This document shows positions 14,642-63,031 of a stretch of DNA of 64,000 bases, piece after piece. The notes under the pieces are model-generated. The model saw only the letters and a program-made list of their open reading frames with translations. It ran no database searches and was not told the origin of the DNA. Location: NCBI GenBank assembly GCA_019912845.1, contig JAIOHU010000194.1, forward strand, positions 38,603-102,602, given 5' to 3'. How positions within the stretch are numbered: position 1 is the stretch's first letter; each line of letters starts with the position of its first letter. A program made the position numbers and the translations under genes. The stretch is from a bacterium (GTDB taxonomy: Bacteria; Electryoneota; Electryoneia; Electryoneales; Electryoneaceae).

Positions 14642-14644
14642 CTC

Positions 14645-14881: not shown

Positions 14882-14986
14882 AGTATTCTCCGTAGGCGAT
14901 AGTAATCATCCTATTAATATAGCAAATGATTGATTGTTTGAACAGATGTTACCAGAAACAAGATCAGAATCGATAAGGTTATTCCC

Positions 14987-19383: not shown

Positions 19384-19600
19384 TTCCTGGATCCCGGCCC
19401 AACTCATCACCGGGATGACGCGGGGTGTGATGCCACACTGGAATAGATCGGCTTAGAATTTCAAGGGAATTATTAGACTTGGGATAAATCCCAAGCCAGA
19501 ATAAATGCCAAACTGGAGTGTGGCGCTCCAGGGCGGGGTGGTGTAGTCTTCTGCTCCCCGGGTTCCGCTGCGCTACACCACAGGGCTACACCAATCTCCC
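19384..19600. repeat. Intergenic repeat cluster: module A stem-loop, module B hairpin, module C, inverted module D
   Basis: Module A (19384-19440) recurs at 30061, 40090 and 48871. Modules B and C (19449-19531) recur at 48759-48946. 19552-19600 is the reverse complement of module D. Confidence 0.6.
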
Positions 19601-19777
19601 CGAGGCATAAAGTATGTAAACTTGAAATTATAGTCCATTTACTTGCTGTTACATTGATATTGTTCTAAATTGTACTCTAATGTGTCAGCGAAATACCTGG
19701 GGGTTGATTAAGGCTGTCAGTAATACTCCCTGCCCCGTTTTCGTTCATTTGGATACCTTACGGAATTGGAGTCCATC

Positions 19778-21919: not shown

Positions 21920-22031
21920 ATCTGGCTATGAGACAAGTTTATGTGTTTTCATGAAGAAATTGCTTATATGTTAGTTAAGCATTTCTGAATGTAATTTTAA
22001 CACAAAATGTAAAGATAAGGCAGAAGGTATA

Positions 22032-24200: not shown

Positions 24201-24500
24201 AACAATAGCACGGAATCTTGTATTCCGAGAAAAAGGTTCCCTGAGTCGACGCAAGCGATCAAATTGAAATTGTATTGGTGAATTAATGTTTCGCTACTAG
24301 AGAGACGATTCCGACAAGTGGACAACCTGAACCACTTCAATCGGCCATCAGAGGTGAAGACAATCCAAATTGATGTGAGAATCTTAAGCTGTTGAGATGT
24401 ATGATTAGGTTCAATCGGAATCGCTCTGAATCTTTTCCCTGGGATGCAAGTTCCCTGGCTACGCTTACTAGAACGAACAGCTACATGATAGTAATAGTTT

Positions 24501-27500
24501 ATGAGGAGATCAGTTTTGAAACTATTCACTGCGTTGTTAATGTCAATAATTCTTTTCTGCACAACAGCCTCTGTTTTTGGTCAAGACAGCTTGAACATAA
24601 ACATTATCTCCAGGCTGGATACTCCTGGATGGGCAAGAAGTATCGCAGTATCAAATGGACATGCCTTCGTTGCAGACAGTGCGAATGGAGTTCGAATTAT
24701 TAATGTTGAAGATAGGACTAACCCATGGCACGTAGGAGTATTTGACCCACTTTCTGAAGCATTTGAAGTGAATGTCTCCGAGGACATTCTCTATGTAACA
24801 ACTCGTTCCGGTGTTCACATACTGAGTTTGGATAATCCCGCAACCCCGGAAGAGATCAGTGTATACGAAAACGGACAATTTGGAACTATTCAAGTTCAAG
24901 ATGGGATTGCCTACCTGTCATATGGTCGGAACCTTAGAATTGTTGATGTGACGGATCCTGAAAATCCAACATTCATTTCTGATTGTGGGGTTGTAGCTTC
25001 TCCCCTTGGAATCGACATTTCAGAGGAATATGCCTATTTGGCGTGCAACAATGATGGTGGACTTAGGATTATTGATATCTCCGACCTCTTTAACCCCGTT
25101 GCGATGGGGTTCTATGATACCATTGGATGGGCGAATGATGTTGCGGTTGATGGTGATATCGCTTGTGTTGCTGATGGACCACGCGGTTTGCATTTGATCG
25201 ACATAAGCAATCCTGATTCTCCCCAATTAATCAGTAGCGTTGATTTGCCTGGCTATTCACGACGCGTTCAGATTATTCAAAATCACGCAATTGTAGCAGC
25301 GAGTGGCGGCGGGTTGCGAATCGTAGATTTCAGTGACCCTGAAGACCCCATGATAACAGGGTTCTACAGAACACCTGGCGGTGCAGAAAGTATATATGCA
25401 AAATCAATACGCTTATGTAGCTGATAATATTTATTTCGATATTTTCGATTGTTCCGATGCACTGCTTGATCCTGGACCTGCAAATGTTTTCGGTGTTGTC
25501 ACAGATAGCATTAATGCGCACCCAATACCAAATGCGACTGTTAGATTTAATCTAAACGAAACAGTTACTGATGAGAATGGAGAATATTCCCTGGTTGATT
25601 TGGAGTTTGGTGAATATAATATCAGGGTATCAGCAAATGGTTATCAAGATTTCATCCAGAACGGAGTATATATTTGGCCGGGCGATAATTTTTTAGACTT
25701 TGATCTACGTTATTCAGATAGTCTCAACATTAATATGTTGTGCCTATTGGATACTCCAGACAATTCACATGCTGTTGCTTTCAGTGATAGTTATGCCTTT
25801 ATCGCATCAGAAGAAGCTGGATTGGTTGTTGTCGATGTAAGTGACCCTGAAAATGCTACTGTCATAAGTACATTCGATACTCCAGATTGGGCAAATGGAA
25901 TTGATGTGGTAGATGGATATGCCTATGTCGCAGATGCAGAATCAGGTTTAAGAATAATAGATGTAACTGACCCTGAAAATCCTGCTGAGATTGGAGTTTA
26001 TAACACACCCGGTTATTGCCACGATGTAATCGTTATAGACAATATTGCTTATGTAGCTGATCGATTTGGTGGGCTCAGAGTTCTTGATGTAAGTGATCCT
26101 GCGCATCCGGTTCAAATTGGTGTTTACAACACAAATGACATGGCACATAGTATTGATTATTCTGATGGTTACGTGTATATCGGAAGCATTTATAGCAGAA
26201 TTCATATTATCAATGTTTCAGATCCCGCAAATCCCCAACAAGTAAGTTCAATTAATATGAACCGAACTGATGATATCACTGTCAGCCAAGGTTTCCTGTA
26301 TGTAGCTGCCAGAAGTGATGGTTTAGTAATATTTGATGTCACGGATCCTGCAAATCCGAGAGAGATGGGAAATTATGATGCGAGCGGTTCAGTCTCTGGT
26401 GTCGAGTATGTTGATGGATACGCATTCTTGACTGCTTCCTGGGCTGGTGGATTCCATGTTGTTAACGTATTCAATCCTGAAAATCCCTATCAGACAGGAT
26501 ATTATGATACCCCGGCACAAGCATTTGATGTGGTCGTTGAGGATAACCTTGCTTATGTAGCTGATTATCATAGTTTCCAAATTTATGATTGCACAGAAGC
26601 TACACCAGAAATATTACCAGCTTCGGTTTCAGGCAGAGTTAGTGATAGCGGAACTGATCAAGGGATTGTGCATGCTGAAGTAAGATTTGGAAATCGATCT
26701 GCATACACTGACCTTGATGGTAATTATCAACTCCACGATTTGGGGTCAGTGAACTATGATGTGAGAATTACTGCAACTGGATATCGTGGTTTTACACAGG
26801 AAAATTTCCAGGTATTGGAGGGTGAAAACGAGTTTAATGCAGTACTGATCTTGGATGACAGTCTAAATGTGAATCGAATTTCAATTTTAGAATCTCCACA
26901 AGTAGCACGAAATGTATTTGGAACAAGTGAACATCTTTTTATTGCAGATAGTATTGATGGACTCAGGATTTTCGATATATCGGATCCTGTGAATCCAAAT
27001 CAAATTGGAGTTACAGAAACTATCACAGGCGCCTGGGATGTTGAATTCATCAATATTACAACATTTGCATTATCCAGTTCCGATGGAATTCATATAATTG
27101 ATCCACAAATTAGGATGTCACCTGTTGAAGTTGGATTTATTGAAACTGCTGGAGACGCCTACGGTATCGAATCAATGGATCATTTCCTTTTAGTCGCCTC
27201 GGGTACAGATGGTTTGCTGATTATTGATGTGGCAGACAGGAATAACCCTGTGGTGGTGGGGTCGATAGAGACTACTGGTTTTGCCTGGGATGTTTCGGTT
27301 CAAGGAAATACCGCTCTGATTGCGGACGGTGCTGATGGAGGTGTCCGTCTGATTAATATTGAAAACCCTGCAGATCCTGTTGAAATAGGGTTTATTGTTA
27401 CTGAGGGATCGGCTCTTGGAATTGTAGTAGATGATGATCTTGCTTATGTCGCCGATGGAATAGCTGGATTGAAGATTATCGATATGAGTAACGTAGAAAT

Positions 27501-28053
27501 GCCAGCAATTATTGCGTCCTATGCTGTACCAGGCATATCAACCAATGTGTTTCTTGAAAATGGAGTTCTCTACCTTGCATCACAGTTTGCCGGTTTACGA
27601 ATTATTGATATAGAGGATCCTGAAAATCTGCATGAGAGCGGATACTACACGACTGAAGGGAATGCATTGGCAGTAGCGGCTCGAGAAGAATTCGCCTATG
27701 TCGCTGCGGGTGAATTTCTCGAAATTTACGATTGTTCCAGCGCGCTTGGCTGGAATCCTGTGCAAAACCGAACTGATCTTGTCCCACCTTCTACAATCGC
27801 TCTGGAGCCAGCCTATCCGAACCCGTTTAATCCGTCGATCACTGTGCCATTTACCCTGCCGGAAAAGATGGATGTACGTTTGAGACTGTACAATATCATC
27901 GGGCAGCAGGTGGCTGAATTAAATCAGGGAGTGCTGGATCGAGGTCACCATGAATTGGTCTTCGAAGCTGTGAACCAGACTTCCGGTGTTTATTTCATCG
28001 TGTTGGAAGCGGGTGAACATCAAGCCATGCAGAAGGTGATACTGCTAAAATAG
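24501..28053 (+). pseudogene. T9SS cargo LVIVD-propeller gene (~1180 aa if joined) interrupted by a +1 frameshift in an A4 run at 25400-25403
   Basis: ORF 24501-25424 (signal peptide plus first propeller) and ORF 25381-28053 (CarbopepD_reg, propeller, CarbopepD_reg, propeller, C-terminal domain) join seamlessly if one A is removed. The joined protein has the paralog pattern TPGxAxx...AYVADxxxxxIFDCSDA. The joined architecture matches the 15834-19151 paralog. Confidence 0.6.
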
Positions 28054-28121
28054 ATCAATATGCCGGATTAAAATAACTCTGTTGGGAATCAAATACTGCC
28101 GATTAATTCAGCGTAAAAATT

Positions 28122-28150
28122 AAGGCGTCGACCAATTTCGACGCCTTAAG
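28122..28150. terminator. Perfect 10 bp inverted repeat (AAGGCGTCGA-ccaattt-TCGACGCCTT) downstream of the frameshifted cargo gene
   Basis: Strong hairpin ~70 nt after the stop at 28053. No U-tract on the + strand (TTTTTAC follows on the minus strand), so the terminator role is tentative. Confidence 0.35.
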
Positions 28151-30003: not shown

Positions 30004-30145
30004 AATTTTGCACGGAAGTCGTATTTATTTTGTCTAACATATTATAACATCAATTTCTTACTGGATCCCGGCCCAACACATCACCGGGATGACGCGAAGA
30101 AACGATACTATCGAGAACCTTACAACTTGAAGAGCAAGGATCATC

Positions 30146-37168: not shown

Positions 37169-37300
37169 GAATTAATTTGATACGTGGGAAGTTAGGAGTT
37201 AGTGTGTCGTCCAGAAATAGGTTGACAGTATTCCGCAACATCCGTAGATGTTGCGGTTGGGTAGCAACTGGATATTCTGAATAGATTATAAGACGGTAAA

Positions 37301-38827
37301 ATGAAAAGAATTTTCTGGCATAGTCGCTGGTTCATGCTGGTAAACCTGGTGCTTCTGCTCATGAACTCCACCATTTTTTCACAAATCCATATTTCTGGCG
37401 AGATCAGCGGCGTTCTCGAAGATACACTCTATATCATAGATGACGACATCACTTTGCGTGGATTTGATACTTTGACAATATCAGGCGGTGCAGAGTTGGA
37501 GTTCATGCCGGACACTTACTTTGCGATTTATGGACGTTTGATCACGGATGGTGCGGAAGGTGATACGATTCGGTTTAGGTCTCATCTGGCAGATTCTACC
37601 TGGCGAGGCATTAACTTCAGGACAGGTGGTAGAGGTGATTTTAACTACTGTCTGATCAGGGATGCCCATATTGGAATACAGGGATGGATGGGTGGAGAAA
37701 TCCGAAACTGTGTGTTTATTTATAATGATGGCGCCATGGGAAGCGCTGCCGACAGGATTTATGATAGTATAGTTCGACACAATAGGCAGGGAATTAATGC
37801 AAATGGAACTGAAGAATTTCCTGATTCTGTTATAAATTGTGATGCTTCCTACAATAGAGACTATGGCATTAATGCTAGCGGGGCAATAATTAAGAACTGT
37901 ATCATATCTTATAATGGATCCGATCCAGAAGTGGATGGCGTTGGGATATCAGCGTCTAGCCATACGGTAGTTGATTCCTGTATGATCTTCCAAAACAGGT
38001 GTTCTCGAGGTGGTGTTTATCTTTCAAATGGATCTACAATTAAAAATTCAATGATATTTGCTAACCAGGGTGAAATTGGTGGAGGAATTACCACTCATCT
38101 TAGCGGTTGTTTAGTTGATAAATGTACGATTATTGGAAACAACGTTATTTCACACCTTTCTATTGGATCCGGTGTGTGGATGGAAGGGTACAATGATGTT
38201 TTAACAAACAGTATTGTAGCATATAACACCGGATATCTTACTAATGGAGTAGATCATCATTATGTTAGAGAAGAAAATATTGTGACCTATAATCTGATTT
38301 ATGGTAATGACAACAGGCAATACCGCCAGATGGATACCACCGAATATTATTTATACCGCAACCTCAATGAGACCCCATGCGACTCATTGTTCAATATATA
38401 CCTCGACCCCAGACTGTTAGACATCGAAAATAATATATTTGAACTAACTGCAGATTCACCCTGTATTGATGCAGGTGATCCTGACCACCTTTATGATCCG
38501 GATAATACCATTACTGATATAGGCTATCATTATTATCCCCACGAAAGTATTGTTAAAAAATCGAATCTTGAGAATCAAATCGTGAGCATTTTTGATGTCT
38601 ATCCAAATCCATTCAATCAGAATCTGAAGGTGAACATTTTAACGGATGATCTTCTACCGGATGCTGAGCTGAAAATTTATGATCTGCTCGGAAGACAATT
38701 GATATCAGCTAAAATTAACAATCCCAGGCAAAGTTATAACTTCGAAGGTTTTTGCTCTGGCACTTATTTTATTAGAGTAACACAGGGGAACTACCAGGAG
38801 AGTAGAACTGTCTATCATATCAAATAA
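37301..38827 (+). CDS. Secreted right-handed beta-helix (pectin-lyase-fold) protein with T9SS C-terminal sorting domain
   Basis: Signal peptide. Repeated parallel beta-helix rungs (NCDASYNRDYGINASGAIIKNCIISYNGS...). C-terminal domain VYPNPFNQNLKVNI...GTYFIRVTQGN...TVYHIK. Confidence 0.7.
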   Translation: MKRIFWHSRWFMLVNLVLLLMNSTIFSQIHISGEISGVLEDTLYIIDDDITLRGFDTLTISGGAELEFMPDTYFAIYGRLITDGAEGDTIRFRSHLADSTWRGINFRTGGRGDFNYCLIRDAHIGIQGWMGGEIRNCVFIYNDGAMGSAADRIYDSIVRHNRQGINANGTEEFPDSVINCDASYNRDYGINASGAIIKNCIISYNGSDPEVDGVGISASSHTVVDSCMIFQNRCSRGGVYLSNGSTIKNSMIFANQGEIGGGITTHLSGCLVDKCTIIGNNVISHLSIGSGVWMEGYNDVLTNSIVAYNTGYLTNGVDHHYVREENIVTYNLIYGNDNRQYRQMDTTEYYLYRNLNETPCDSLFNIYLDPRLLDIENNIFELTADSPCIDAGDPDHLYDPDNTITDIGYHYYPHESIVKKSNLENQIVSIFDVYPNPFNQNLKVNILTDDLLPDAELKIYDLLGRQLISAKINNPRQSYNFEGFCSGTYFIRVTQGNYQESRTVYHIK

Positions 38828-39884: not shown

Positions 39885-40324
39885 GCCGTCCAGTATTGAC
39901 AATCGGAATCACCGGCTTTATCGGAGGGTATCTCTGGAAAAACCATTGGATTGATTAATATTATCAGAGGGATTGGTGCTGGATTTATCCAGGGTGTACA
40001 CCTTCCTAGCTGTCCGAGAATGAAAATTTTAGATTATTCTGAAAAATTGCGGATATGTTATGTTTTCTAACATGTAATAATATCAACACCTTCCTGGATT
40101 CCGGCTCAACTCATCACCGGAATGACGAGGGCGATAGAACCAATATTTGAATTATTAAACTTTGGACAAGTCCAAAGCCAATAATCAAGGTGTGCGAGAT
40201 AGCCTGCTACGTCATCAGCCTTGCGCAAAGTATTTTGAAAACCCCTTTGCCTGGTATTGAAGCGTGAATTTGTAATGTCTACCTTCGATATCACAAATTG
40301 AGCCGATCACAAGGAATTTGAAAT

Positions 40325-42349: not shown

Positions 42350-43876
42350 ATGTTCAGCAAACTCTGGACAATGGCGTTGGAAGGGATTGATGCCAGCCTG
42401 GTAGAGGTGGAAACCCAACTCGAAGGCGGATTTGAGGGGATTACCATCGTTGGGCTTGCCGGCGCATCGGTACGTGAATCAAAAGACCGTGTGAGTGCTG
42501 CGATCAGAAATTCCGGCTTCATCTATCCACGTAAGAAGATCACCATCAACCTTGCGCCCGCAGACAAACGCAAAGAGGGTAGCGCATTTGATCTACCGAT
42601 TGCGTTGGGGCAACTGGCGGCTACTGGTCAAATACGAAATGATGACCTTGATCGATTTGTCTGCCTCGGTGAACTGGCGCTGGATGGACGACTTCGGCAT
42701 GTACGTGGAGTCTTACCTTCTGCACTAGCGGTTCGCAAACTCGGTAATAAAGCGATTATTGTTCCAGAATCCAATGCCGACGAGGCAGCGGTTGCGGAAG
42801 GGGTGGATGTTTATCCTATGGCGAACCTGCGGGATGTCGTTGATTTCCTCAACGGCGATGATCAGGTTGATCCCTATACAATAAATCTGCGAGAACTTTT
42901 CGCCGAACGTCAGCAATATGATGTCGATTTTTCAGAGGTAAAAGGGCAGGATCGCGCAAAACGTGCGCTTGAAATCGCTGCCGCCGGGGGACATAATGTG
43001 CTGTTAATCGGTCCTCCCGGTTCAGGGAAAACGATGTTATCGCGTCGGTTACCGACGATTCTACCCCCTCCCACATTAGATGAAGCTCTTGAGACAACTC
43101 AGATTCATTCGGTCGCCGGAACACTTAGAGAAGAAACCGCACTCATGGCAGTGCGTCCCTTCCGCAGCCCGCATCATACCATTTCCGATGCAGGGCTAAT
43201 TGGAGGAGGCACGATACCGATTCCGGGTGAGGTAAGCCTTTCACACCGCGGTGTCCTCTTTCTGGATGAACTACCTGAATTTGGAAAAACAACCCTCGAT
43301 TCATTACGTCAGCCATTGGAAGATGGGGAAGTAGTAATCGCACGTGTGGCTATGACAACACGTTTCCCCGCTCGTTTCCTCCTGATTGCCGCCATGAACC
43401 CCTGTCCCTGCGGATTTCTGGGCGATTCAAACCGAGAGTGTGTCTGTTCAATCAACCAGGTAAGAGCCTATCGTGCGCGGATTTCTGGTCCGTTGCTGGA
43501 CAGGATTGATTTGCATGTCTCTGTGCCAGCAGTAAAAGCTGAGGAATTGAGCCTGAAGAGTGAAGGTGAACCTTCTTCGAGTATGAGGGATCGTGTCATG
43601 AACGCTCGCAATATCCAGCTCGCTCGATTCCAGGATGCTGGAATCTTTTCAAATGGCGAAATGGTATCCAGGCATGTACGCAATTATGCAAAGGTATCTG
43701 ATGGAGCTGAAAAAATGCTTCAAGAGGCGATTAAACGGCTCGGTTTATCAGCGAGAGCACATTTCCGTTCCATGAAAGTTGCCCGTACCATTGCGGATAT
43801 GGCAGGGCATGAGGAAGTACAGGAGGATGATATCCTGGAAGCTGTTGGATTCCGTGAACTTGATCGTGAGGTTTAG
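42350..43876 (+). CDS. comM: YifB/ComM family Mg-chelatase-like AAA+ ATPase
   Basis: N-terminal Lon-like domain (MALEGIDASLVEVE). Walker A (GPPGSGKT), Walker B (VLFLDELPEF). C-terminal Mg-chelatase subunit-like region. Confidence 0.8.
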   Translation: MFSKLWTMALEGIDASLVEVETQLEGGFEGITIVGLAGASVRESKDRVSAAIRNSGFIYPRKKITINLAPADKRKEGSAFDLPIALGQLAATGQIRNDDLDRFVCLGELALDGRLRHVRGVLPSALAVRKLGNKAIIVPESNADEAAVAEGVDVYPMANLRDVVDFLNGDDQVDPYTINLRELFAERQQYDVDFSEVKGQDRAKRALEIAAAGGHNVLLIGPPGSGKTMLSRRLPTILPPPTLDEALETTQIHSVAGTLREETALMAVRPFRSPHHTISDAGLIGGGTIPIPGEVSLSHRGVLFLDELPEFGKTTLDSLRQPLEDGEVVIARVAMTTRFPARFLLIAAMNPCPCGFLGDSNRECVCSINQVRAYRARISGPLLDRIDLHVSVPAVKAEELSLKSEGEPSSSMRDRVMNARNIQLARFQDAGIFSNGEMVSRHVRNYAKVSDGAEKMLQEAIKRLGLSARAHFRSMKVARTIADMAGHEEVQEDDILEAVGFRELDREV

Positions 43877-43878
43877 CA

Positions 43879-45453
43879 GTGCAAGAATATACGGGTAATC
43901 TTTTTACACAACTTACAAACCGGATAAAGAGAGGTGATTCTGCCAGTTCTATCAAATGGCGTTCGAATAATCTCTCCTGGTCACAAGTTGAACAGGCTGC
44001 AAGGAAGGTAGCTGGTGGACTGGTCAAACTTGGGGTCAAGCCGGGAGACAGGGTTGCTTTAATGCTTCCCAATGTACCTCCCTATCTCTTCATTAAGTTT
44101 GGGGTTCACCTGATGGGAGGGATTTTAGTGCCGATTCACATCCTGACCAGAGGCCCTGAATTGGGGTATCAGCTTGAAGATTGCGAAGCGAAAGTTTTGT
44201 TCACCTGGAGTGGGTATGAGGAAGTTGCCCTGGAAGGAATCGAGCAAACAGAATCACTTCAGCATCAAATTCAAATTGGGTGCAGTAATTCGGACACCTG
44301 TATCGATTTTAATGAGTGGTTGAGCGAGTGTGAGCCTTTTGACGGCGAGCCTGTTGGTGGTGATGACGATATTGCTTTGATCCGTTATACCGCAGGTGTT
44401 ACGGGACGACCTAAGGGTGCCATGATCACTCACAAGAACCTGATTTTCGGGAGTCGAGAAACCCAACGTATCCTGCGTCTGAGTGCGAAAGATCGTCTCT
44501 TGACCACCATACCGTTTTACCATCCTTTCGGCGACAGTCTGCAGATTCACCTTGCCCTTGAGTCGCGATCGGATATCATCATGCTATCTCGTTTTGACCC
44601 GGAGGAGACCTACGACCTGATCAATCATGGAGAGGTTGATGTTATCATCGGTCTTCCTGTCCACTTCAGTACACTCTGTGAAGCTGCGGAGGATGCGGAA
44701 CCTGAAGAGAAGCATTTACGTTTTGCAGTCAGTGGTGGTGGACCGCTCGATATGGAAGTGATCCAGGGCTTTGAATCCATATTTGACAGCAAAGTTGCCA
44801 GTGTGTACGGTACCTGTGAAACCAGTCCGACCATTGCAGTAAATGCGCCTCACCGTGAGGAAAGCCCGCGTGAATCCTGGGGTCGTCCAATTTCTGGCAT
44901 GGATATCCAGATCGTCAATGTTCAGAATGAAGCGGTTCCAATCGGTGAAGTTGGAGAAATTATTGTAAAGGGAGCGGGTGTTTTTGCTGGATACTGGAAC
45001 CGTCCCGGTGCAACCGCGATGACCATCGACGCTGATGGCTGGTTCCACACTGAAGACCTCGGACGTGTAGATCTGAATGGTTATCTGTATGGCATGGGCA
45101 GGATGCATGATCGTATCAATAAGGGCGGATTTTCAGTATATCCTCGTGAAATCGAAGGAATAATCGACGCCCACCCTACTGTACGCATTAGTGCTGTGAT
45201 AGGCATTCCTGACGCTGTTTACGGTGAGGAAATCATTGCTTATGTCGTTCCACGCTCAGGGCAGCATGTAGATACCGATGAAATTATACGCTATTGCATG
45301 GCTCATCTGGCGCGTTACAAAGCACCCAAGCATATCAATATTGTGGAAGAATTGCCACGTTCCCCCAATGGTGTAATTTTGCGACGAGCCTTACGTGAAT
45401 CAGCAACAGGAAATCTACACTCACAGCCACAATCCATCGAAGGGGATGTGTAG
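43879..45453 (+). CDS. AMP-dependent acyl-CoA synthetase/ligase
   Basis: AMP-binding motif YTAGVTGRPKGAMITH, later YGTCET and a C-terminal lysine motif region. Confidence 0.8.
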   Translation: MQEYTGNLFTQLTNRIKRGDSASSIKWRSNNLSWSQVEQAARKVAGGLVKLGVKPGDRVALMLPNVPPYLFIKFGVHLMGGILVPIHILTRGPELGYQLEDCEAKVLFTWSGYEEVALEGIEQTESLQHQIQIGCSNSDTCIDFNEWLSECEPFDGEPVGGDDDIALIRYTAGVTGRPKGAMITHKNLIFGSRETQRILRLSAKDRLLTTIPFYHPFGDSLQIHLALESRSDIIMLSRFDPEETYDLINHGEVDVIIGLPVHFSTLCEAAEDAEPEEKHLRFAVSGGGPLDMEVIQGFESIFDSKVASVYGTCETSPTIAVNAPHREESPRESWGRPISGMDIQIVNVQNEAVPIGEVGEIIVKGAGVFAGYWNRPGATAMTIDADGWFHTEDLGRVDLNGYLYGMGRMHDRINKGGFSVYPREIEGIIDAHPTVRISAVIGIPDAVYGEEIIAYVVPRSGQHVDTDEIIRYCMAHLARYKAPKHINIVEELPRSPNGVILRRALRESATGNLHSQPQSIEGDV

Positions 45454-45458
45454 TCGCA

Positions 45459-46178
45459 GGAGCGCCACACTCCAGTGTAGCATTTTATATTCTGGCTTGG
45501 GATTTATCCCAAGTCTAATAAATCCATCGACGTATTTTTCAATGCTTTTATCTAAGGACTTCACCTCAGCGTGGTGAGATTTGCGTAGCCCCGACGTGCT
45601 GCGAAGCGAAACCCGGGGAGCAGAAGCGTCCTTCTCTCAGGGTGGCAAGGGGATGAGAGCAATTCTACTGATAAATAGCAATGAATTGAAAAACGTTTAA
45701 GAACTGAATTGTTTTTTGTATTTCATACTCATCCTCGGGTATTATTCATCCACTCTAAAATTGAAACTTGCACAAGAATTTGTCACTTAAACCCGATGCA
45801 AAGCATCGGGCCATCTTTGGAGCGGCACACTCCAGTGTAGCATTTTTTATTCTGGCTTGGGATTTATCCCAAGTCTAATAAATCCATCGACGTATTTTTC
45901 AATGCTTTTATCTAAGGACTTCACCACAGCGTGGTGAGATTTGCGTAGCCCCGAGGTGCAGCGAAGCGTAACCCGGGGAGCAAAGGCGTCCTTCTCTCAG
46001 GGTGGCCCGGGGATGAGAGCAATTCTACTGATAAATAGCAATGAATTGAAAAACGTTTAAGAACTGAATTGTTTTTTGTATTTCATACTCATCCCCGGGT
46101 ATTATTCATCCACTCTAAAATTGAAACTTGCACTAGAATTTGTCACTTAAACCCGATGCAAAGCATCGGGCCATCTTG
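45459..46178. repeat. Perfect-phase tandem duplication, 2 x 360 bp, of a composite intergenic repeat (modules C, inverted B, D, E)
   Basis: The sequence from 45459 (ggagcgccacactccagtgtagc...) recurs from 45819 with only a few substitutions. Copy boundaries are at 45459, 45819 and 46178. Confidence 0.85.
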
Positions 46179-46537
46179 GTGGAACGACGTACTCCAGAGT
46201 ATCCCCAAGCCACCCACAAAATAATATCATCTTTTTCCAGCAATTCATTGAATTTGTCACAATTATAATGGTATATTTTATTGCAGGCACCAACATCGTG
46301 TGATGTATTCGGTTTGCCGTACTTGTATATTTGACTGCTGGGGGAACCTTTCTGTGCTTCTGTGAAAGGGTGGCTGACACGCCCCCCTTTCGATCTCCCT
46401 CATCATCGAGAAGGTATATTTGTGAAAAACTCTCTCATAATCAATATGAGACCTGTAGTAAGAGCTACAGGCCACCCATCGTTTTCAATCACTCTCAACG
46501 CTCTCAGCAACACACTTAATTTAGGGGCTGCAATAGA

Positions 46538-48745
46538 ATGAAATTCATCCTCGCTTTTTTCGTGCTTTTTCCTTCATTCATATTTGCACAGGACAGTCTG
46601 AACATGAGCCTGCTGAAGCACTTCCAGACCTACGAACCGTTTGCCTGTGATGTTACCTCGATTGATAACTACGTTTATGTCGCAAATCATATCGATGGCA
46701 TTGTTATCGTGGATATCTCTAATCCTCAAGAACCTGATGATTTTACAAAAGTTCCTGTTCCTACAAATTGCTTTAACCTGTTTATTCTTGATCCGTACCT
46801 GTATGTAAGTGGTTTCCATAGTGATAATCCTGAAAATCAATCCGGTCTCTATATATTTAATATTGAAAACAGGGAAGAACCGGAATTTATTACTCGCTAC
46901 GAGCAGCAGTCTTCTTATATGGTGAATGTAGGTGAAACTCTTTTTACAGCAAACCCCTGGTACATTACCATCCTCAACCTGGAAAATAGAACTCAGCCAG
47001 ATACCCTGGCGCGAATTGGACGCGAGAATAGTTTATATTATGAGAACTCAATACACGTAGCGAACTCACACCTCTTCATCATCAACAGAGAACACATTCT
47101 AAAATGTTTTAATGTTGTAGATCCAGCGAATCCCCAACTGGTGGATACGTTACATCTTGAAACAGGTGCGAACGACTTGACTTCCATGGGTTCTACACTC
47201 TTGGTGGGTAATAGTGAAAATGGAATCACCACAATTGATATTTCGAATCCAGCCGAACTAACCAGAATCAATAACTTCGAAGTGTACAGTCCTGTTAGAC
47301 ATGTAGGTACGGTAAGCGATCACTTTGCGCTGTCAGTCCACAGGGAGGAACGTGATGATTGGCCGGACAGCCTTTATGTATTTGATATACTGGACAATGG
47401 TGATATTGATGTTCTTGGCAGCCACTATCTTCAGAATTTTACAGGTGTATTGTTATACGAACAAGCGGGAAACCTGCTGTTTCTGGCAGATGATTATTTG
47501 CGAATTGTTGATGTAAGCGATTTAGCCAACATGGTGGAATTGGGTACAACTCAACAACCTATACAATTCTTGTCCACAGTTGTTATCGGTGATCGTTACT
47601 ATGGAATGCTTGATGGATATATCTGGATTATTGATATATCAAACCGTGATGAAATCGAAATCCTGGGAAAAAAACCTGTAAATCACCGGGCGTTCAGTGA
47701 TCGTGCCAGAAATGCCCTGGCCACAGATGGCACCAATCTCTGGATTGGTTGTGCTGGTTGTTGGTTGTATAAAGCTGAAGTATTGCAGGATGCACCCTGG
47801 GTGACACTCGTTGATTCAGTAAACCTTTATACAGACGAAGACACCTTCGCCCCTGTTATTCATGTGGAGAGTGAATCCAATACCCTTTACTACAGCGAAC
47901 ATACTGAAAATCTTTGTGCGATTGATTTGTCTACATTTGAAATCAGTCAAATCTACAATACCCATGGGATAATATCCGATATTGAACATCAGGATGATCT
48001 TCTTTTTGTCACAATTCTTCAAGATTCCATTTATATATTCGATAAAAGTGATGCTATGCTTCCTGTTCTTTCATCTACCATTTACCATGATGGTGTTGGT
48101 TTGCCAGGAAGCGTGGTTACTGTCGAAAACAGTCTATATTACAATTATTTATATGGAATTCGAAAATATGATATATCGAATCCATTTGATCCCATTATGA
48201 TTGGGAATTACACCCCCCCCTACATCAGGACGAGTATTATTCTGGATAAAGTTGGTGAGTACGTAGTTTATAACAATATATCAGGAGTAGACTACTTATT
48301 CGTGCTCGATTTAACAAGTGATGATCCTGCTGAATGGCAACCTGTCGCCTGGCACCGAGCCAGTATAGCCGGTATATGGACTTTTACTGTCAGCGATAAT
48401 CTCCTTCTAGCAGAAAATTATATCTACCAAGTTTCAGATGAGCTTAATCCAGTAAAGGAGATAGATGAGGAAGTTGGGTTACCAGGTAATATCACCCTCT
48501 CAACCTCACCCAATCCGTTCAATGAAACTATTCAGATTACCTTTACTTTGCCCCATAGAACAAATGTAGATATTGCGTTATATGATCTTTTAGGCAGGGA
48601 AATAGCTTCTATTGTACAGGACAGAGTCTTTGATGTTGGGAAATACAATTATTCCTGGTCTCCATCCATATCGTCCGGGATATATTTTGTTCGACTGGAA
48701 GGTAACGGAGTATCAATTAATCAGAAGATAATATATCTGAAGTGA
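46538..48745 (+). CDS. T9SS cargo protein with degenerate beta-propeller repeats and T9SS C-terminal domain
   Basis: Signal peptide plus QDSLNMSL start. Repeated IVDISNP-like units. C-terminal domain SPNPFNETIQITFTLPHRTNVDIALYDLLGREIA...GIYFVRLEGNGVSINQKIIYLK. Confidence 0.75.
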   Translation: MKFILAFFVLFPSFIFAQDSLNMSLLKHFQTYEPFACDVTSIDNYVYVANHIDGIVIVDISNPQEPDDFTKVPVPTNCFNLFILDPYLYVSGFHSDNPENQSGLYIFNIENREEPEFITRYEQQSSYMVNVGETLFTANPWYITILNLENRTQPDTLARIGRENSLYYENSIHVANSHLFIINREHILKCFNVVDPANPQLVDTLHLETGANDLTSMGSTLLVGNSENGITTIDISNPAELTRINNFEVYSPVRHVGTVSDHFALSVHREERDDWPDSLYVFDILDNGDIDVLGSHYLQNFTGVLLYEQAGNLLFLADDYLRIVDVSDLANMVELGTTQQPIQFLSTVVIGDRYYGMLDGYIWIIDISNRDEIEILGKKPVNHRAFSDRARNALATDGTNLWIGCAGCWLYKAEVLQDAPWVTLVDSVNLYTDEDTFAPVIHVESESNTLYYSEHTENLCAIDLSTFEISQIYNTHGIISDIEHQDDLLFVTILQDSIYIFDKSDAMLPVLSSTIYHDGVGLPGSVVTVENSLYYNYLYGIRKYDISNPFDPIMIGNYTPPYIRTSIILDKVGEYVVYNNISGVDYLFVLDLTSDDPAEWQPVAWHRASIAGIWTFTVSDNLLLAENYIYQVSDELNPVKEIDEEVGLPGNITLSTSPNPFNETIQITFTLPHRTNVDIALYDLLGREIASIVQDRVFDVGKYNYSWSPSISSGIYFVRLEGNGVSINQKIIYLK

Positions 48746-48758
48746 CACAGGAATAGCT

Positions 48759-48946
48759 CGGCTTAGATATTCAAGGGAATTATTAGACTTGGGATAAATC
48801 CCAAGCCAAAATACATGCCGCCCATGCGGAGAATGCTTGTCCATAATTCCAAAATCTACAATATCAATTGCTTCCTGGATCCCGGCCCAACTCATCACCG
48901 GGATGACGCGGGGTGTGATGACACACTATGGAGTGTGGCGCTCCAG
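48759..48946. repeat. Intergenic repeat cluster (modules B, A, C) between convergent genes
   Basis: Near-identical to 19384-19531 but with the module order changed. Confidence 0.6.
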
Positions 48947-48956
48947 TGTAAATGTT

Positions 48957-51056
48957 CTAATTGAATAGCAGCCAGCGCACTCCCCAGATTTCATCACGGT
49001 GTGTATATGGGAAACCGGGAATGGGTTCGTAGTAGGCACTCAGGAGATTGTTTGTACCCCAGTAAACTTCGAAGTTGGAGATTGTAACACTCGCAAGTCC
49101 ATTGAGGAAGATTTTTGATTCCTGAAAAATTGCACTTTCCGTAATATCCAGGGAACGGTAAGTATAGCTATCCCAGTAATTTGCAGTAAATGACGCCTTT
49201 ACAAGCAAATGTCCGTCGAAAAAGTGATCGTTATATCGTGCACTGCCCCAGCCCCAGTTTGAAGGAATCGCAGTATCATCTCGTTTCAGATTACTCCATG
49301 TATAGGCACCAGCCAGCGAGAAGGGTCCCCATAGGTCTAGCCAGCCATCAGCGGTTACTTCCAACCCTTGAATATCCTTGTCCTGATATGCTGTCCAGGT
49401 ATTGTCCTCAAGTTGCCGATAACGGATTGGCGATAAATACTGCCGTTGACCAAGCATAATTCGGATAGACCGATCCTGCTTTTGACGATATATACTTCCG
49501 GCACCGAGAAAAATCCCGCCGACAGGAAGAAGGTCGGGATTTCCCTCGTATACGCTTGATGAATCTGGAACGTATAAGGGTTCAAGAGTACGTGGGGGTG
49601 AATGCAAAGCCCAGTAACCGTAGCTTTCATCCAGTCCCGGCAACCTCCACCCCATGTTCGCGCTGCCAAGAAGTGCGAATCCGAGACTGTCACCATACTC
49701 GATATTCATGGTAAAAGCGGGACGTCCGATCAGAGGAGTCTCCCGTGAATCACGCTGATCATTTGAGCGGCTTATTTCCGCCCGAAGCATCGTGGTGTAA
49801 GATAATTTTTCATACCGAGCATTGTTTCCGACGCTCATACCCAGTTGATCACGTTCTCCTTTTGGTTCAACTTTTTTCGGTAGTTCGCCAAAACGTGCGC
49901 CAGATTTCGCGAGATCAAGCTGGAGATAGCTGCGGTTTTGTTTCCAACTTTTTTCTCCTCGCATTCTGCCACCAAGCTGGAAGCCATCCTCACCTCGATA
50001 ATAATAGCCTCGGTTATTACGAGTATACCAGGCTGCAATCTCATAGTAGGTGGAATCGTTCTGTAGCCCACTCCTCCAGATGAGGTCGAGGTCATTACGG
50101 TGAATGCTATTTGCATTGTTGGTGTAGGGACGACCATAATCGAGTCGAGTCTGCATCCAGTAGGCTCCAAATCGCCCAAAATTGCCCATGTTCTGTTCAC
50201 CGCCCAGACGCAACAGACTCGTGTTGGCATACGAATTCAAACGATAGCCTTCGTACTCCCCGATGTTTACACCGAGGTGGTAACGAAATGCGGGAGTTAA
50301 CGATTGCGCGATGCGCCAGTCTGCATGACCCAGACCGTAAAAACCTTGACGGTGTACGATACGTGCTTCAGGTATAACAGGATATTGCTGTGGAGTATGT
50401 AAGGTATAAGCAGGACCAGAGGTCATCCAACCTGCGGGATGATTTCCTTGAAACAAATCAACAGTTTCAAGCTCCTCCGGTGCGAAGGCACTAAGGTCTG
50501 CGCTTCCGGTAATCGGATCAAGATAGGGTCGCCCGCGATAGACAAAGGCGACATCCCGTGCACTCATTCCCGGTGGGATCATGTACGCGGGTTGGGCATA
50601 TAGTGCCGGACTGTATGGATAGGCACCCGGCAATATTGATATGATATCACCAACATCTTTGTAGCCCTGACGTGTCCATGATTTACGATCGAGGCGTATT
50701 CCAGCAGTTACGACAGGTGGCAGGGGAAGTGTATCCAGCACAAGAATAACTTCAGGAAGGTGACCTCTATGTTCACTTACGAGGGAACTGTCTGCGACCA
50801 GAGTGGAGTCCGAGATAACTGGGTTCAGTGAATCGGGGAGTGTATCCAGAGAATCGCTGCGTACGCTGTCCGGTTGCACCGGGTTCACTATAAGCGAATC
50901 GGGATTTTCCTGCCCGAACCCGCATGTTGCGACGAACAGGATTGCCAGTATCAGCAGGCTGAGATCGCGAAAACTGAAAACGATCTTGCACGAACCGTTT
51001 GAAGAGAACTTTTCTGTTCTTTGTTTCAGATTTATCTGTTCAACCATTATAAGCAC
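48957..51056 (-). CDS. Outer-membrane protein, TonB-dependent-receptor-like (plug-like segment plus beta-barrel), hypothetical
   Basis: Signal peptide/anchor. Plug-like segment (DVGDIISILPGAY...ELETVDLFQGN). Long beta-rich region. C-terminal RWLLFN. Confidence 0.45.
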   Translation of the reverse strand: MLIMVEQINLKQRTEKFSSNGSCKIVFSFRDLSLLILAILFVATCGFGQENPDSLIVNPVQPDSVRSDSLDTLPDSLNPVISDSTLVADSSLVSEHRGHLPEVILVLDTLPLPPVVTAGIRLDRKSWTRQGYKDVGDIISILPGAYPYSPALYAQPAYMIPPGMSARDVAFVYRGRPYLDPITGSADLSAFAPEELETVDLFQGNHPAGWMTSGPAYTLHTPQQYPVIPEARIVHRQGFYGLGHADWRIAQSLTPAFRYHLGVNIGEYEGYRLNSYANTSLLRLGGEQNMGNFGRFGAYWMQTRLDYGRPYTNNANSIHRNDLDLIWRSGLQNDSTYYEIAAWYTRNNRGYYYRGEDGFQLGGRMRGEKSWKQNRSYLQLDLAKSGARFGELPKKVEPKGERDQLGMSVGNNARYEKLSYTTMLRAEISRSNDQRDSRETPLIGRPAFTMNIEYGDSLGFALLGSANMGWRLPGLDESYGYWALHSPPRTLEPLYVPDSSSVYEGNPDLLPVGGIFLGAGSIYRQKQDRSIRIMLGQRQYLSPIRYRQLEDNTWTAYQDKDIQGLEVTADGWLDLWGPFSLAGAYTWSNLKRDDTAIPSNWGWGSARYNDHFFDGHLLVKASFTANYWDSYTYRSLDITESAIFQESKIFLNGLASVTISNFEVYWGTNNLLSAYYEPIPGFPYTHRDEIWGVRWLLFN

Positions 51057-51152
51057 AATTCAAATTTACCCTGTTTGAATCATGCAAGGTAATGAATTTC
51101 AGTAACAAAATCAGTAGGACTAGATTGCTAAATTGCGATCTTCCATGAAGTG

Positions 51153-54100
51153 CTATCTTACGAGTACGATTTTCATAGATCTGCTTTCACCCTTGAAGCT
51201 CAAGGTTACGATATAGATTCCACTGACTAGATTGTTCGCTTGTTTCGTAGATTGAACCAGATATCGATTAACTCCCGCAGGGTAATGCTTTGATTCTTTG
51301 AACACAACTTGACCCTGAATATTATAGACAATCAAACTCACATCACCTTCACCAGGCAATGTGAAGGGAATTGTCACTGCTGGATTGAAAGGTTGTGGAT
51401 ATGGATTTGAGACTGTGAATTTCTCGGGCAAGTTGCTGTTGTTTGTATTCACGAGAGTAATGTGACCATAGGGATTACCGAAGTACTTTACCTGCTTACT
51501 CGTAGTTAAACTGTTACCTTCGTCATCCAGCCCACGAATGGTTACTGCTTCTCCTGTTTGTGCCCCAGTAAATTTGTCGGCGCTATTTTTTCCCCAGACA
51601 ACAAGCGGTACCAACGATTGTCCTTCCATCGGGATTGCACTACCAATCAGTTCGCCGTTCGTATTGCGCGCTTCCAGCAATGCGATACCATCCATCGATG
51701 ATTCTCCAGCCACTTCAACAAGGACAATCCATGGAATTCCCGTTGGTGAAACACCTGGCGATACTGCTGTGGGAAGAGGTTCGGCTATTGTCGTTCTTGC
51801 TAATTGTTCAGGTTGTGGATAGTTGAAGGTGATATCAGCATTGGCGAATACCATCAACCCGCGTCCTGGATGCATATCACCCAGCGTATTGATAAACCCT
51901 GGTATCCATGCCCCACCCTCAACGTCAGTTGCGATGATTATCGCACCTTCCACTTCAGCTAGAGCAGTGGAGGCATCGATGTTTTGCTGGTAAAGATGTC
52001 CCAGCCAGTTCCAGCGATTAGCAGCTAATGAATAGGTGAAATCCGTTGGTAGCTCTTCTCCTTGTACTACCCAGGCGGAAGGTTCTTCGCAGAACAATTG
52101 ATATGCCTCAGACAGGTCAACAGTACCAATGGTGTTGATACCCAATTCCGGAAGTAGAATTCCACCGTCATCATTTTGGGCGATATTAAGATTTTGAATT
52201 GATCCAAATACATCCTCCGCATTCAGGAATGCTGGTCTCACTGGGGAGGTAACCAGTTCATAAAATCTACTTCGCAATGGAAGTTCGAGTTGCTCATTAC
52301 CATGTTGACCATCCACTTCTATTGTTCTTACCGAAGCGACACGGATTTTTTCTGAGATTATTGCAAATTCTCCTGCTAAAGCAGTCTTTCTGATATTATC
52401 CCCACGTGCACGATGACCAATCATGATAGGTTCATCAGCATTTGTAACATCAAATACTTCTATTATAGTCTGATCTTGAGTAACCCATAGAGCACCGTTT
52501 TGATAGTCCAGATCAGCCACAAATGCAATGCTGGTTGGCTCAATTGTTGAACGTATCACTGGATCAGCCGGATTTGTTATGTCAATTACCCAAACGCCTT
52601 GTTGCAAGTTGCTGATATAGACTCTATCTGCTGACATGGTTATTGGACCATAAGGTCCTTCCAGTTCGAGAGATCCCACTAGCTGTGGATTCGTACGATC
52701 ATGAGTGTCATAAAGTAGAAGCCCATCTTCATCATCCAGGAAAGCAACCATCTCTCCGAACGTAGCAATTCGTCTGATGAAGGAAGGTGCCTGAATTTCT
52801 GCAATAATTTGATAACGCGGACCTGGAACAAGGTCATACACTTCTACCTGTTCTTCTGTGGATACAAACAATAACCCGTTGCCAATCGCATGTGAATGAA
52901 AAGCTTGGATTCCCCAGGAATACAATTGTTCGAGGTTATCCGGATGTGTAACATCAATTACACGCATCCGTCCGGAGTTTGACGAATACGATCCTGCGAA
53001 CAGATAATTATTGTAGTGATCAAATCCTGAAATTCTGTGATTCGTGTACCCGATTGAGTCTTGTTCCACAAGGTCCTGTGGAATTGAAATATCTATTGTT
53101 CGAATCGCATGGGTTTGATAGTCGTGCAAAAAAGCATAATTACCGATAATATCAATTTCCTTGACCAATCCAACTGTCAAATAACTTCCTGCAACTTGTG
53201 GATTATCCGGTGCTGTATAGTCGATCACATATAATCCAAAAGGACCTGAACCGTCCCAGAAGGCGAAATAAGCGTAACCATCCTTTGCCACAACACCTTC
53301 CCAGTAGGGACGGTAATATTCCTGATTTTCGAGCATTCCAATCAGGTTTACTGTTGGAGGCTCTGAGATGTTGACAACTGATATCTGGTGAGGTCCATCA
53401 GAAATGATCCCCATAGGATAGTCGATGGCCATCCCAAGTGCATGATGAGGATCATAACCTCCAATTCCAACTAAACTGATATTGGCAGGATCAGACACAT
53501 CAAATATCTGAACATCATCATCAGTTACATAAAGTAAATCATTGTGAAGTAATACTTCACAGGCATGACCAAGCGTTGCATTAATACTCGCAATTTCCAC
53601 AGGTGCATTAATTTCGGATATATCGTATACAAACAGATCACCATCCGTTGCTACATACAGATAAGGATAATCTGTTAGTAGTTCTGTCTGGCGACTCTCA
53701 GCTATCCTTCTATTGACAACAAGTTGAGGTACAGCGGGGACACTCACGTCATAAATTACTAAACCATCTTCGTAGGTAATCGCATAGTTTTCCCAGAGAT
53801 TTATATCCTTGATCCACGATACACTCTCAGGACCACGAAAGACATTTACAGGGTCATAGGGATTGCTGATATCGAATATCTCCAGACGGGACGAAACCAC
53901 ATAAAGCCATGGGAAATCAACTACAGGCGAACAGAAACCAGCTGCATTCTCTGTAAAAGCCACACTGATCCCGGAAGGATTTTCAGGATCACTTACATCG
54001 TAAAGATAAACATTTTCACCATGACCACCCTGGTATACGATTGTATCATTTTTCGTGATGTCATAAGTTCTATAGATACTGAAGAGTAAAGCATCAACTG

Positions 54101-54188
54101 TTGGTATATCCGGTTGTGCGTTACCAGGCAAAGGGAATAAAAGAGTGATATAGATAGACACGACCAAAATATTAAGAAGTATTTTCAT
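51153..54188 (-). CDS. T9SS cargo protein (~1011 aa): LVIVD propeller region, shared non-propeller domain, T9SS C-terminal domain
   Basis: Signal peptide (MKILLNILVVSIYITLLFPLPGNAQ) and LVIVD-type repeats. The middle domain is homologous to the C-terminal half of the 19778-21919 protein. C-terminal domain NPYPQPFNPAVTIPFTLPGEGDVSLIVYNIQGQ...KIVLVR. Confidence 0.8.
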   Translation of the reverse strand: MKILLNILVVSIYITLLFPLPGNAQPDIPTVDALLFSIYRTYDITKNDTIVYQGGHGENVYLYDVSDPENPSGISVAFTENAAGFCSPVVDFPWLYVVSSRLEIFDISNPYDPVNVFRGPESVSWIKDINLWENYAITYEDGLVIYDVSVPAVPQLVVNRRIAESRQTELLTDYPYLYVATDGDLFVYDISEINAPVEIASINATLGHACEVLLHNDLLYVTDDDVQIFDVSDPANISLVGIGGYDPHHALGMAIDYPMGIISDGPHQISVVNISEPPTVNLIGMLENQEYYRPYWEGVVAKDGYAYFAFWDGSGPFGLYVIDYTAPDNPQVAGSYLTVGLVKEIDIIGNYAFLHDYQTHAIRTIDISIPQDLVEQDSIGYTNHRISGFDHYNNYLFAGSYSSNSGRMRVIDVTHPDNLEQLYSWGIQAFHSHAIGNGLLFVSTEEQVEVYDLVPGPRYQIIAEIQAPSFIRRIATFGEMVAFLDDEDGLLLYDTHDRTNPQLVGSLELEGPYGPITMSADRVYISNLQQGVWVIDITNPADPVIRSTIEPTSIAFVADLDYQNGALWVTQDQTIIEVFDVTNADEPIMIGHRARGDNIRKTALAGEFAIISEKIRVASVRTIEVDGQHGNEQLELPLRSRFYELVTSPVRPAFLNAEDVFGSIQNLNIAQNDDGGILLPELGINTIGTVDLSEAYQLFCEEPSAWVVQGEELPTDFTYSLAANRWNWLGHLYQQNIDASTALAEVEGAIIIATDVEGGAWIPGFINTLGDMHPGRGLMVFANADITFNYPQPEQLARTTIAEPLPTAVSPGVSPTGIPWIVLVEVAGESSMDGIALLEARNTNGELIGSAIPMEGQSLVPLVVWGKNSADKFTGAQTGEAVTIRGLDDEGNSLTTSKQVKYFGNPYGHITLVNTNNSNLPEKFTVSNPYPQPFNPAVTIPFTLPGEGDVSLIVYNIQGQVVFKESKHYPAGVNRYLVQSTKQANNLVSGIYIVTLSFKGESRSMKIVLVR

Positions 54189-54399
54189 GTCCGAATCCTC
54201 TAAGTAGCAAGAGTTGGTCAAGGTGCGACTTACATCAGATTACATTATTAGCAATCAGTTTGCAAATGAATTCATGTCACTTTCTAAAAATCTCGCAAGA
54301 AGTCTCTCAGGGAAAGGACGCCAGGTGAGGAAAATACTGGATTTCCCCTTGAGAAAATCAAAAAAATAACGATACCTTTAGCGTTTGGAATTTGTGGAC

Positions 54400-62994: not shown

Positions 62995-63031
62995 CGCGTC
63001 ATGCCAGCGTGGGGTTAGCTGGCATCCAGGA
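62995..63031. repeat. Module F hairpin repeat (CATGCCAGC...GCTGGCAT), second copy
   Basis: cgcgtcatgccagcgtggggttagctggcatccagga matches 15263-15299. Confidence 0.5.

Follow-up and report, generated by a model that had tools for sequence, protein, structure and literature searches.

Why does the spacer between an enzyme gene and the gene of a secreted protein carry the same few hundred base pairs twice in succession? The question is raised by positions 45459-46178 of a 64,000-nucleotide stretch of genome from a bacterium of the family Electryoneaceae (assembly GCA_019912845.1, contig JAIOHU010000194.1, positions 38,603 to 102,602; hereafter the window), for which an initial annotation had proposed an exact 2 x 360 bp duplication of a composite repeat. 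The repeated unit is a mosaic of several modules rather than one element: module D is a palindrome of the repetitive extragenic palindromic (REP) type, and modules A, B, s, E and F are untagged hairpins; two further families, C and G, occur outside the unit. The locus is probably a diverged 360-bp duplication of such a REP-type hairpin mosaic, generated by slippage or recombination between copies of module A, with modules that are REP-like in role. REP-type and mosaic repeats are already known elsewhere; the present repeats are a lineage-specific relative of these in the kin of Candidatus (Ca.) Electryonea.

The tandem array and its modules

A single tandem array was reported for the window by Tandem Repeats Finder (45459-46177, period 360, 2.0 copies, 96% matches, 0% indels). 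Base-by-base comparison of 45459-45818 with 45819-46178 gave 13 substitutions and no indels, i.e. 96.4% identity, with the substitutions at unit positions 7, 29, 108, 137, 142, 151, 165, 167, 189, 190, 277, 316 and 360; the longest run identical between the units is 86 nt. The duplication is therefore not exact as first described, whereas the two copies are indeed in the same phase and nearly identical. The self-BLAST match is wider than this array (45459-45839 against 45819-46201), because a degenerate third copy of module A (A', 46179-46201) follows it. The sequence at the junction of the two units is CATCTTTGGAGCGGCAC, with ...CATCGGGCCATCTT before the boundary and TGGAGCGGCACACTCC... after it.

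The array, with its units head to tail, occupies part of an intergenic spacer of 1,084 bp. Its neighbours are those of the initial annotation, an acyl-CoA synthetase and a cargo gene: on the left an AMP-binding (acyl-CoA synthetase-type) gene (43879-45453), and on the right a gene (46538-48745) whose product contains LVIVD repeats and a C-terminal sorting domain of the type IX secretion system (T9SS). The longest open reading frame (ORF) within the unit is at most 51 aa, and alignment of the unit to a paralogous copy at 15 kb requires frame-breaking single-base gaps, and so the unit is non-coding. A spurious ORF of 75 aa across the D copy at the paralogous locus (14917-15141, minus strand) yielded no candidate in a protein search. 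No Rfam family was found at gathering thresholds across the whole window, and permissive thresholds gave nothing but sub-threshold noise for 45300-46600. The features of the array are as follows.

45459-45818 (+): tandem unit 1, 360 bp (Tandem Repeats Finder, direct comparison); starts 5 nt past the stop codon of the AMP-binding gene, which ends at 45453
45819-46178 (+): tandem unit 2, 360 bp (Tandem Repeats Finder, direct comparison); 13 substitutions relative to unit 1
45457-45475 and 45817-45835 (+): module A (CAGGAGCGCCACACTCCAG); copy 1 sits 3 nt past the stop codon
45496-45513 and 45856-45873 (+): module B, hairpin (CTTGGGATTTATCCCAAG); fold -13.8 kcal/mol, z = -5.1
45920-45938 (+), unit 1 copy at 45560-45578: s hairpin (TTCACCAC AGC GTGGTGAG); fold z = -3.3
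45945-45978 (+), unit 1 copy at 45585-45618: module D, GTAG-tagged REP-like palindrome (GTAG, CCCCG A GGT ... ACC CGGGG), from a 4-copy alignment
46006-46099 (+), unit 1 copy at 45646-45739: module E, perfect 12-bp inverted arms (CCCGGGGATGAG / CTCATCCCCGGG) and a 70-nt A+T-rich loop, from an inverted-repeat search; fold z = -4.8
46152-46170 (+), unit 1 copy at 45792-45810, third copy at 15401-15419: module F, hairpin (CCCGATGCAAAGCATCGGG); fold -13.7 kcal/mol, z = -5.2
46179-46201 (+): A', degenerate third A (TGGAACGACGTACTCCAGAGTA) that closes the array, from BLAST extension and alignments

All four modules named in the initial annotation were found in each unit. Module A corresponds to unit positions 1-25 (GGAGCGCCACACTCCAG...) and can form two overlapping hairpins; the canonical copy at 14236 is a strong hairpin (z = -4.0) and scores as terminator-like. 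Module D comprises 34 nt, with a stem of 5+3 bp interrupted by a 1-nt bulge and a loop of 13 nt that contains an inner GCGAAGC mini-hairpin; GTAG directly precedes the CCCYG stem in 4/4 copies, and in the alignment of these copies 95% of the cells are paired, the sole variation being a C to U change that gives G.U. The arms of module F are CCCGATGC and GCATCGGG, separated by AAA. The s hairpin is confined to the array, with no copy elsewhere in the window, and its unit 1 copy has a stem mismatch (A to T, unit position 108). The arms of E are likewise degraded in unit 1 (AAGGGGATGAG / CTCATCCTCGGG); relative to the paralogous locus at 15 kb (locus 15), these stem-weakening changes in the E arms and the s hairpin sit in unit 1 and are uncompensated. 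When the whole of unit 2 was folded as RNA, z-scores of -5.2 (plus strand) and -6.4 (minus strand) against shuffled sequence were obtained; B, E and F, too, fold much more stably than shuffled sequence.

The array has the layout A-343 nt-A-343 nt-A', and its junction shares TGGA/GGA microhomology. A' is about 77% identical to A and is not present at the paralogous 15.4-kb locus. Since the units are 96% identical, the direct repeat that flanks the array is older than the duplication. Two A copies (A and A') would thus have flanked the segment as direct repeats beforehand; replication slippage or unequal recombination between them would have led to the arrangement A-unit-A-unit-A', and substitutions would then have accumulated in both units. 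The amplification had been called recent, which holds in a relative sense only, as the copies differ by 3.6%, more than the two best dispersed copies of family C (1.6%). The duplication itself would need no function. By analogy with REPs, module A may serve as a 3' transcript stem-loop, i.e. as a termination or mRNA-stability element right after stop codons, and the other modules may for the most part be repeat DNA of a selfish or neutral kind, kept in existence by the maintenance of hairpins.

Dispersed copies and the class of the repeats

Module counts cover the 64-kb window, for which the intergenic set comprises 20 spacers of at least 60 nt. At least one module was found in 10/20 of these spacers, in varying orders and orientations, and some of the module-bearing spacers separate housekeeping genes (e.g. 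YceG, NadC/GAF). The initial annotation had listed further places with the same modules, single or rearranged, and every one of them was recovered. Outside the array, module A is present at 227-245(-), 14236, 19513-19531(-) and 48928-48946(-), module B at 19478-19495 and 48788-48805 with a variant at 14272 and 40149-40181, D-E at 15048-15223 (E at 15125-15215), F at 15401-15419, and D at 19548-19601(-). Six matches to A were found in the window and none in shuffles, and the match counts observed for A, B and F were reached in 0/100 window shuffles. Family C occupies six sites (15265-15297(+), 19388-19420(-), 30062-30094(-), 40095-40127(-), 48876-48908(-) and 62997-63028(+)), and family G comprises hairpins with CCGCAA..TTGCGG stems (14996-15029, 15320-15353 and 37228-37256). 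The order of modules differs between loci, for example C, x-B, A at 19.4 kb and x-B, y, C, A at 48.8 kb. Three arrays lie next to genes for LVIVD proteins, as listed here.

14236-15427 (+): paralogous array upstream of the LVIVD gene 15750-19151, in the order A (14236-14254), B variant, HicA/HicB genes, G (14996-15029), D-E (15048-15223), C (15265-15297, CGTC strand +), G (15320-15353), F (15401-15419)
19378-19601 (no strand assigned): array downstream of the 15750-19151 gene, with C (19378-19439), x-B(-) (19436-19509), A(-) (19513-19531) and D(-) (19548-19601)
48746-48946 (-): array downstream of the 46538-48745 gene, with x-B (48746-48819), CGTC-type C (48866-48927) and inverted A (48928-48946)

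The HicA/HicB toxin-antitoxin pair (14411-14881, minus strand) is located inside the first of these arrays, between A/B (14236-14300) and G-D-E (14996 on). The two direct G copies of this array are 324 bp apart and flank D-E-C; another tandem duplication could start there.

At three of five independent loci (45457, 14236 and 48946), module A lies 3, 6 and 10 nt past a stop codon, in gene orientation; for uniform placement in intergenic DNA, and on a crude ORF-based gene map, the probability of this arrangement is about 2e-4. A preference for TAG as the stop codon beside A was considered and rejected: 3/3 of these genes end with TAG, but TAG also ends 14/37 genes of the window, and the difference is not significant. 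One of the genes concerned is an ORF of 699 aa (48957-51056, minus strand) without Pfam match, convergent and situated between two LVIVD genes, for which A starts 10 nt past the stop codon.

The genus Ca. Electryonea was described from Ace Lake (PMC9324843), and YifB homologues from Ca. Electryonea clarkiae and from metagenome-assembled genomes share 74-76% identity with the YifB encoded in the window. No module was found in five related loci (L005-L007, L016 and L017; YifB 72-76% identical). These relatives keep the order GAF-Fpg-laccase-YifB-AMP-binding, and the AMP-binding gene is followed by a different gene at 5-11 nt (L006/L007, L016/L017) or by an unrelated spacer of 1 kb (L005). A 20-mer of B gave three matches (Clostridia, Neptuniibacter and Anaerotignum), which were taken as chance, in 185,579 species genomes that do not include the host, and no match in 241 million metagenome contigs of the Joint Genome Institute (JGI). 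A 19-mer of A gave five matches in the same 241 million JGI contigs, and a 17-mer of A gave three in IMG/VR viral contigs, all without similarity beyond the query word; an 18-mer of C gave none in the IMG/VR viral contigs. Unit 2 with the leader gave no BLAST match to phages and plasmids. As far as these scans reach, the repeat families appear to be lineage-specific.

The dispersed copies differ in ways that maintain hairpins. In the second hairpin of A, GCCACA/TGTGGC is replaced by GCCGAA/TTCGGC at 227-245, which represents two double compensatory changes, and in the B variant at 40149-40181 CTTTGGAC..GTCCAAAG compensates CTTGGGAT..ATCCCAAG. The stems of family C (CCCGG, TCCGG and (A/G)CCAGC) covary between conserved flanks, with two covarying stem pairs and a covariation score that was reached by 0/500 shuffles. 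With four to seven sequences per family, the compensatory changes in A, B and C count as supporting evidence and not as proof.

Tagged REPs are palindromes of 20-40 bp with stems of 6-13 bp and subfamilies with complementary stem changes; they are sorted by a conserved, unpaired tag beside the stem into GTAG-tagged and CGTC-tagged superfamilies and have been reported in eight phyla (Di Nocera et al. 2013, PMC3733652). Between unidirectional or convergent genes they lie less than 20 bp from ORF 3' ends, and clusters of REPs are reiterated in tandem along with flanking DNA (PMC3733652), which describes the type of array seen here. CGTC REPs are marked by a terminal CGTC; their stem comprises 8-9 bp, the first two of which are A-T pairs, the loop measures 4-5 nt with exceptions in a few families, and a CCA-like tail stays unpaired. 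The dRS3 element of Neisseria is a CGTC-1 element (PMC3733652). The repeats of the window resemble tagged REPs (PMC3733652) as intergenic palindromes, in the GTAG on D, in the CGTC, first A-T pairs and CCA tail on C, and in the position of module A within 20 bp of ORF 3' ends. Read on the other strand, family C has CGTC, AT-stem...stem-AT and CCA at 6/6 sites; with stems of 7-8 bp and loops of 9-12 nt, it departs from the definition of CGTC-tagged REPs (8-9 bp stem, 4-5 nt loop) by longer loops and slightly shorter stems. Unlike in tagged REPs, a tag is missing from A, B, s, E and F, which make up most of the unit's modules, and the stem of D is interrupted (5+3 bp) and its loop is 13 nt long.

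Bacterial interspersed mosaic elements (BIMEs) of E. coli are mosaics of REPs and other short extragenic motifs, often in tandem, in which the REPs alternate in orientation. Mosaic hairpin repeats and their tandem reiteration are the points of likeness between BIMEs (PMC2817692, PMC3333891) and the present array. Unlike in BIMEs, the D copies stand head to tail, 360 bp apart, with several unrelated hairpins between them, and because they do not alternate the array is not a strict BIME. Of the genome-specific REP/BIME-like family proposed in the initial annotation, the lineage-specific, dispersed hairpin repeats of REP and mosaic kind thus remain, and the strict BIME does not. The BOX elements of pneumococci have the structure boxA-boxB(n)-boxC, with a fixed order of modules, and move as a unit. 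Like BOX elements (PMC3049150), the array is modular, with tandem internal reiteration and strong predicted folding. In contrast to BOX, the module order varies here between loci, and one locus only is duplicated. Tagged-REP-type families (full CGTC signature; GTAG) and mosaic arrays are shown in an uncultivated relative of Ca. Electryonea.

Two other candidates for the nature of the repeat were rejected, i.e. the template and variable repeats of a diversity-generating retroelement (the differences between the copies are not confined to adenines but affect all four bases, and neither copy lies inside a gene) and a CRISPR element.

Shared flanks of two LVIVD/T9SS genes and rival explanations

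Part of the unit recurs colinearly upstream of the second LVIVD gene (15750-19151). Unit positions 111-289 (D-E) are 76-78% identical to 15048-15223, and unit positions 283-360 (F) together with 220 bp beyond the array (46101-46398) are 73% identical to 15350-15619 (BLAST). The last 78 bp of the unit and 220 bp of the 360-bp spacer downstream hence form a conserved region upstream of both genes, which the initial annotation had overlooked; the proteins encoded by 15750-19151 and 46538-48745 are 21% identical, so that conservation is far higher in the non-coding flank than in the genes. The region concerned is the following.

46202-46537 (+): upstream region of the 46538 gene, from the similarity block, a promoter scan and the alignment

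A promoter-like TTGAAT-N18-TATATT is predicted at 46248-46277 (TATATA at locus 15), and two hairpins downstream of it (46364-46391 and 46452-46471) are both kept at locus 15. The duplication provides a 360-bp homology that could be expanded or contracted by recombination about 70 bp upstream of this promoter-like site of a T9SS cargo gene; the number of unit copies just ahead of this gene for a secreted protein may be variable. The divergent T9SS cargo genes, bracketed by conserved mosaic flanks, are the part of the locus worth follow-up.

Several observations weigh against a REP-type mosaic duplicated between A copies. Ten of the 13 differences between the units are transversions, and 8/13 fall within unit positions 108-190, so that simple neutral decay does not explain the divergence of the units. 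Within the array, the copies of A form weak hairpins (z = -0.8) and lack a clear T-run behind them; the A copy at 19513-19531 does not follow a gene of its own orientation. Covariation is missing in module D, which by itself folds no better (z = -1.3) than shuffled sequences. No REP-associated tyrosine transposase (RAYT; Y1_Tnp) or other transposase is present among the ORFs of the window, and the copy numbers come from 64 kb of genome alone. Finally, the colinearity of D-E-F upstream of two paralogous genes could also mean a functional leader.

Four other explanations were weighed. That the array is an artefact of assembly, with one 360-bp segment written twice or two alleles of different strains joined in tandem, we regard as very improbable. 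The sequence does derive from a metagenome-assembled genome, and the 13 differences between the units are unusually rich in transversions. The units have diverged by substitution and not by insertion or deletion, none of the runs identical between them exceeds 86 nt, which a large-k or paired-read assembly can resolve, and the boundaries of the array coincide with the A/A' direct repeat that is older than the duplication; these observations argue for a real duplication, and a small doubt remains. The repeats do break short-read assemblies of the organism, and one contig in Logan ends at a repeat k-mer: this contig, built from another read set (SRR15661998), is 100% identical to 42782-45517, carries unit-1-specific bases, and breaks off at exactly the point from which its k-mers are common to a copy with a different preceding base. 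Its final 31-mer is the last one to begin with the A specific to unit 1 (position 29), as expected of a k = 31 graph with a second copy that is preceded by a different base. Another Logan contig (L018), also from another read set (SRR15661999), is 100% identical to 13665-15129 and ends 15 nt before the first 31-mer that is shared within the window, hinting at another copy elsewhere; because its other end breaks inside a gene, no conclusion was drawn from this end. [quoted passage not shown] Like MITEs and Correia elements, the repeats are small, non-coding, intergenic and hairpin-forming, and E has perfect 12-bp terminal inverted repeats around a 70-nt A+T-rich core; at locus 15, moreover, 126 nt are extra between E and F, with an imperfect 7-nt direct repeat (TTCATTC/ATCATTC) at their flanks. 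Unlike in MITEs and Correia elements, there are no target-site duplications and no terminal inverted repeats that span the unit, and no related transposase was seen in the window, which contains no transposase gene. The two ends of the unit are not linked by an inverted repeat, the unit is found nowhere else in the window, and E is always joined to D via the same linker and lacks a target-site duplication of its own. A period of exactly 360 without any indel fits a duplication and not two independent insertions, and the description of the family as MITE-like is not retained for a unit that lacks terminal inverted repeats and a target-site duplication and does not recur as such in the window.

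The shared flanks bear on the other two explanations, both of which we consider unlikely, although less so than an artefact or a MITE. Under one of them, D-E-F and the sequence downstream would control the LVIVD cargo genes, either as a structured leader or as a small RNA transcribed divergently, and the duplication would double a regulatory element. This is suggested by the colinearity of D-E (76-78%), F and the 220 bp beyond the array (73%) upstream of genes with 21%-identical proteins, by the conserved promoter-like site and its two downstream hairpins, and by the strong predicted folding of the unit (z = -5 to -6). Rfam gave no match, however, permissive thresholds included; the array lies upstream of the promoter-like site and would therefore be outside that transcript, D is found also inverted and downstream of a gene (19548-19601), the changes that break the stems of E and of the s hairpin in unit 1 are uncompensated, the loop of E is poorly conserved between the loci, and nothing similar to the leader occurs at five other genes of the window with LVIVD repeats or a T9SS tail. 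The other explanation refers to Neisseria, where divergent genes for surface proteins are flanked by arrays of neisserial intergenic mosaic elements (NIMEs; dRS3 + RS), which have been proposed to promote the exchange of these genes (Bentley et al. 2007, PMC1797815). By analogy, the present arrays would be NIME-like substrates of homologous or site-specific recombination in a distant phylum, which bracket fast-evolving T9SS cargo genes as exchangeable cassettes and promote their exchange or replacement, and the 2 x 360 bp would be a recombination scar, a by-product of repeated, imprecise recombination in the left array. Both LVIVD genes are bracketed alike, with A(-B) upstream, 3-6 nt past the preceding stop codon, and C, x-B and A, the latter two as reverse complements, downstream; the inverted A-B repeats are 39-67 bp long and surround segments of 5.3 and 3.5 kb, and the flanks are 73-98% identical against 21% for the two proteins. 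Further, the 46538 protein has no homologue of more than 22% identity besides itself, the AMP-binding gene is followed in related genomes by a different convergent gene after 5-11 nt and no repeats, and family C is of the CGTC type, as is dRS3 of Neisseria. Like NIMEs, the arrays are intergenic, with several families around a CGTC-type inverted repeat and varying repeat number, beside, and to either side of, highly divergent genes for secreted or surface proteins; unlike NIMEs, they show no regular dRS3-RS-dRS3 periodicity and no evidence of gene exchange. Reportedly, NIME arrays had been seen in no organism other than Neisseria (PMC1797815). Each flanking array has one C element (15.2, 19.4 and 48.9 kb) instead of many dRS3-like repeats, and C is absent from 45454-46537, the tandem unit included; spacers at T9SS genes are not enriched, with modules in 5/11 adjoining and 5/9 other spacers, no gene for a recombinase lies in the vicinity, and the ends of A are without a flanking target-site duplication. 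Since the resemblance to NIMEs is incomplete in these respects (at most one C per array and none in the unit, no enrichment, no recombinase nearby), this explanation is kept as a rival; if the arrays did mediate exchange of T9SS cargo, they would be a second, independent case of the NIME principle.

Other features of the window

T9SS cargo genes are unusually dense in the window (15750-28053, 37301-38827 and 46538-54221), with seven Por_Secre_tail ORFs, six of which contain LVIVD repeats. One further LVIVD ORF (24501-25424) has no sorting tail and overlaps the next LVIVD ORF by 44 nt; it may be a frameshifted fragment. The 3' ends of two LVIVD genes (21676-21922 and 27810-28056, the region of the T9SS sorting domain) are 89% identical over 247 nt, and the remainders of these genes are dissimilar in DNA, which may reflect gene conversion or domain exchange. 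The protein encoded at 46538 is MBZ0265363.1, annotated publicly with 713 aa, i.e. 22 residues shorter than the longest ORF at this place in the window (735 aa). Near-perfect palindromes that are unrelated to the module families are located in other intergenic spacers, at 3987-4019 (33 nt) and 28120-28149 (30 nt).

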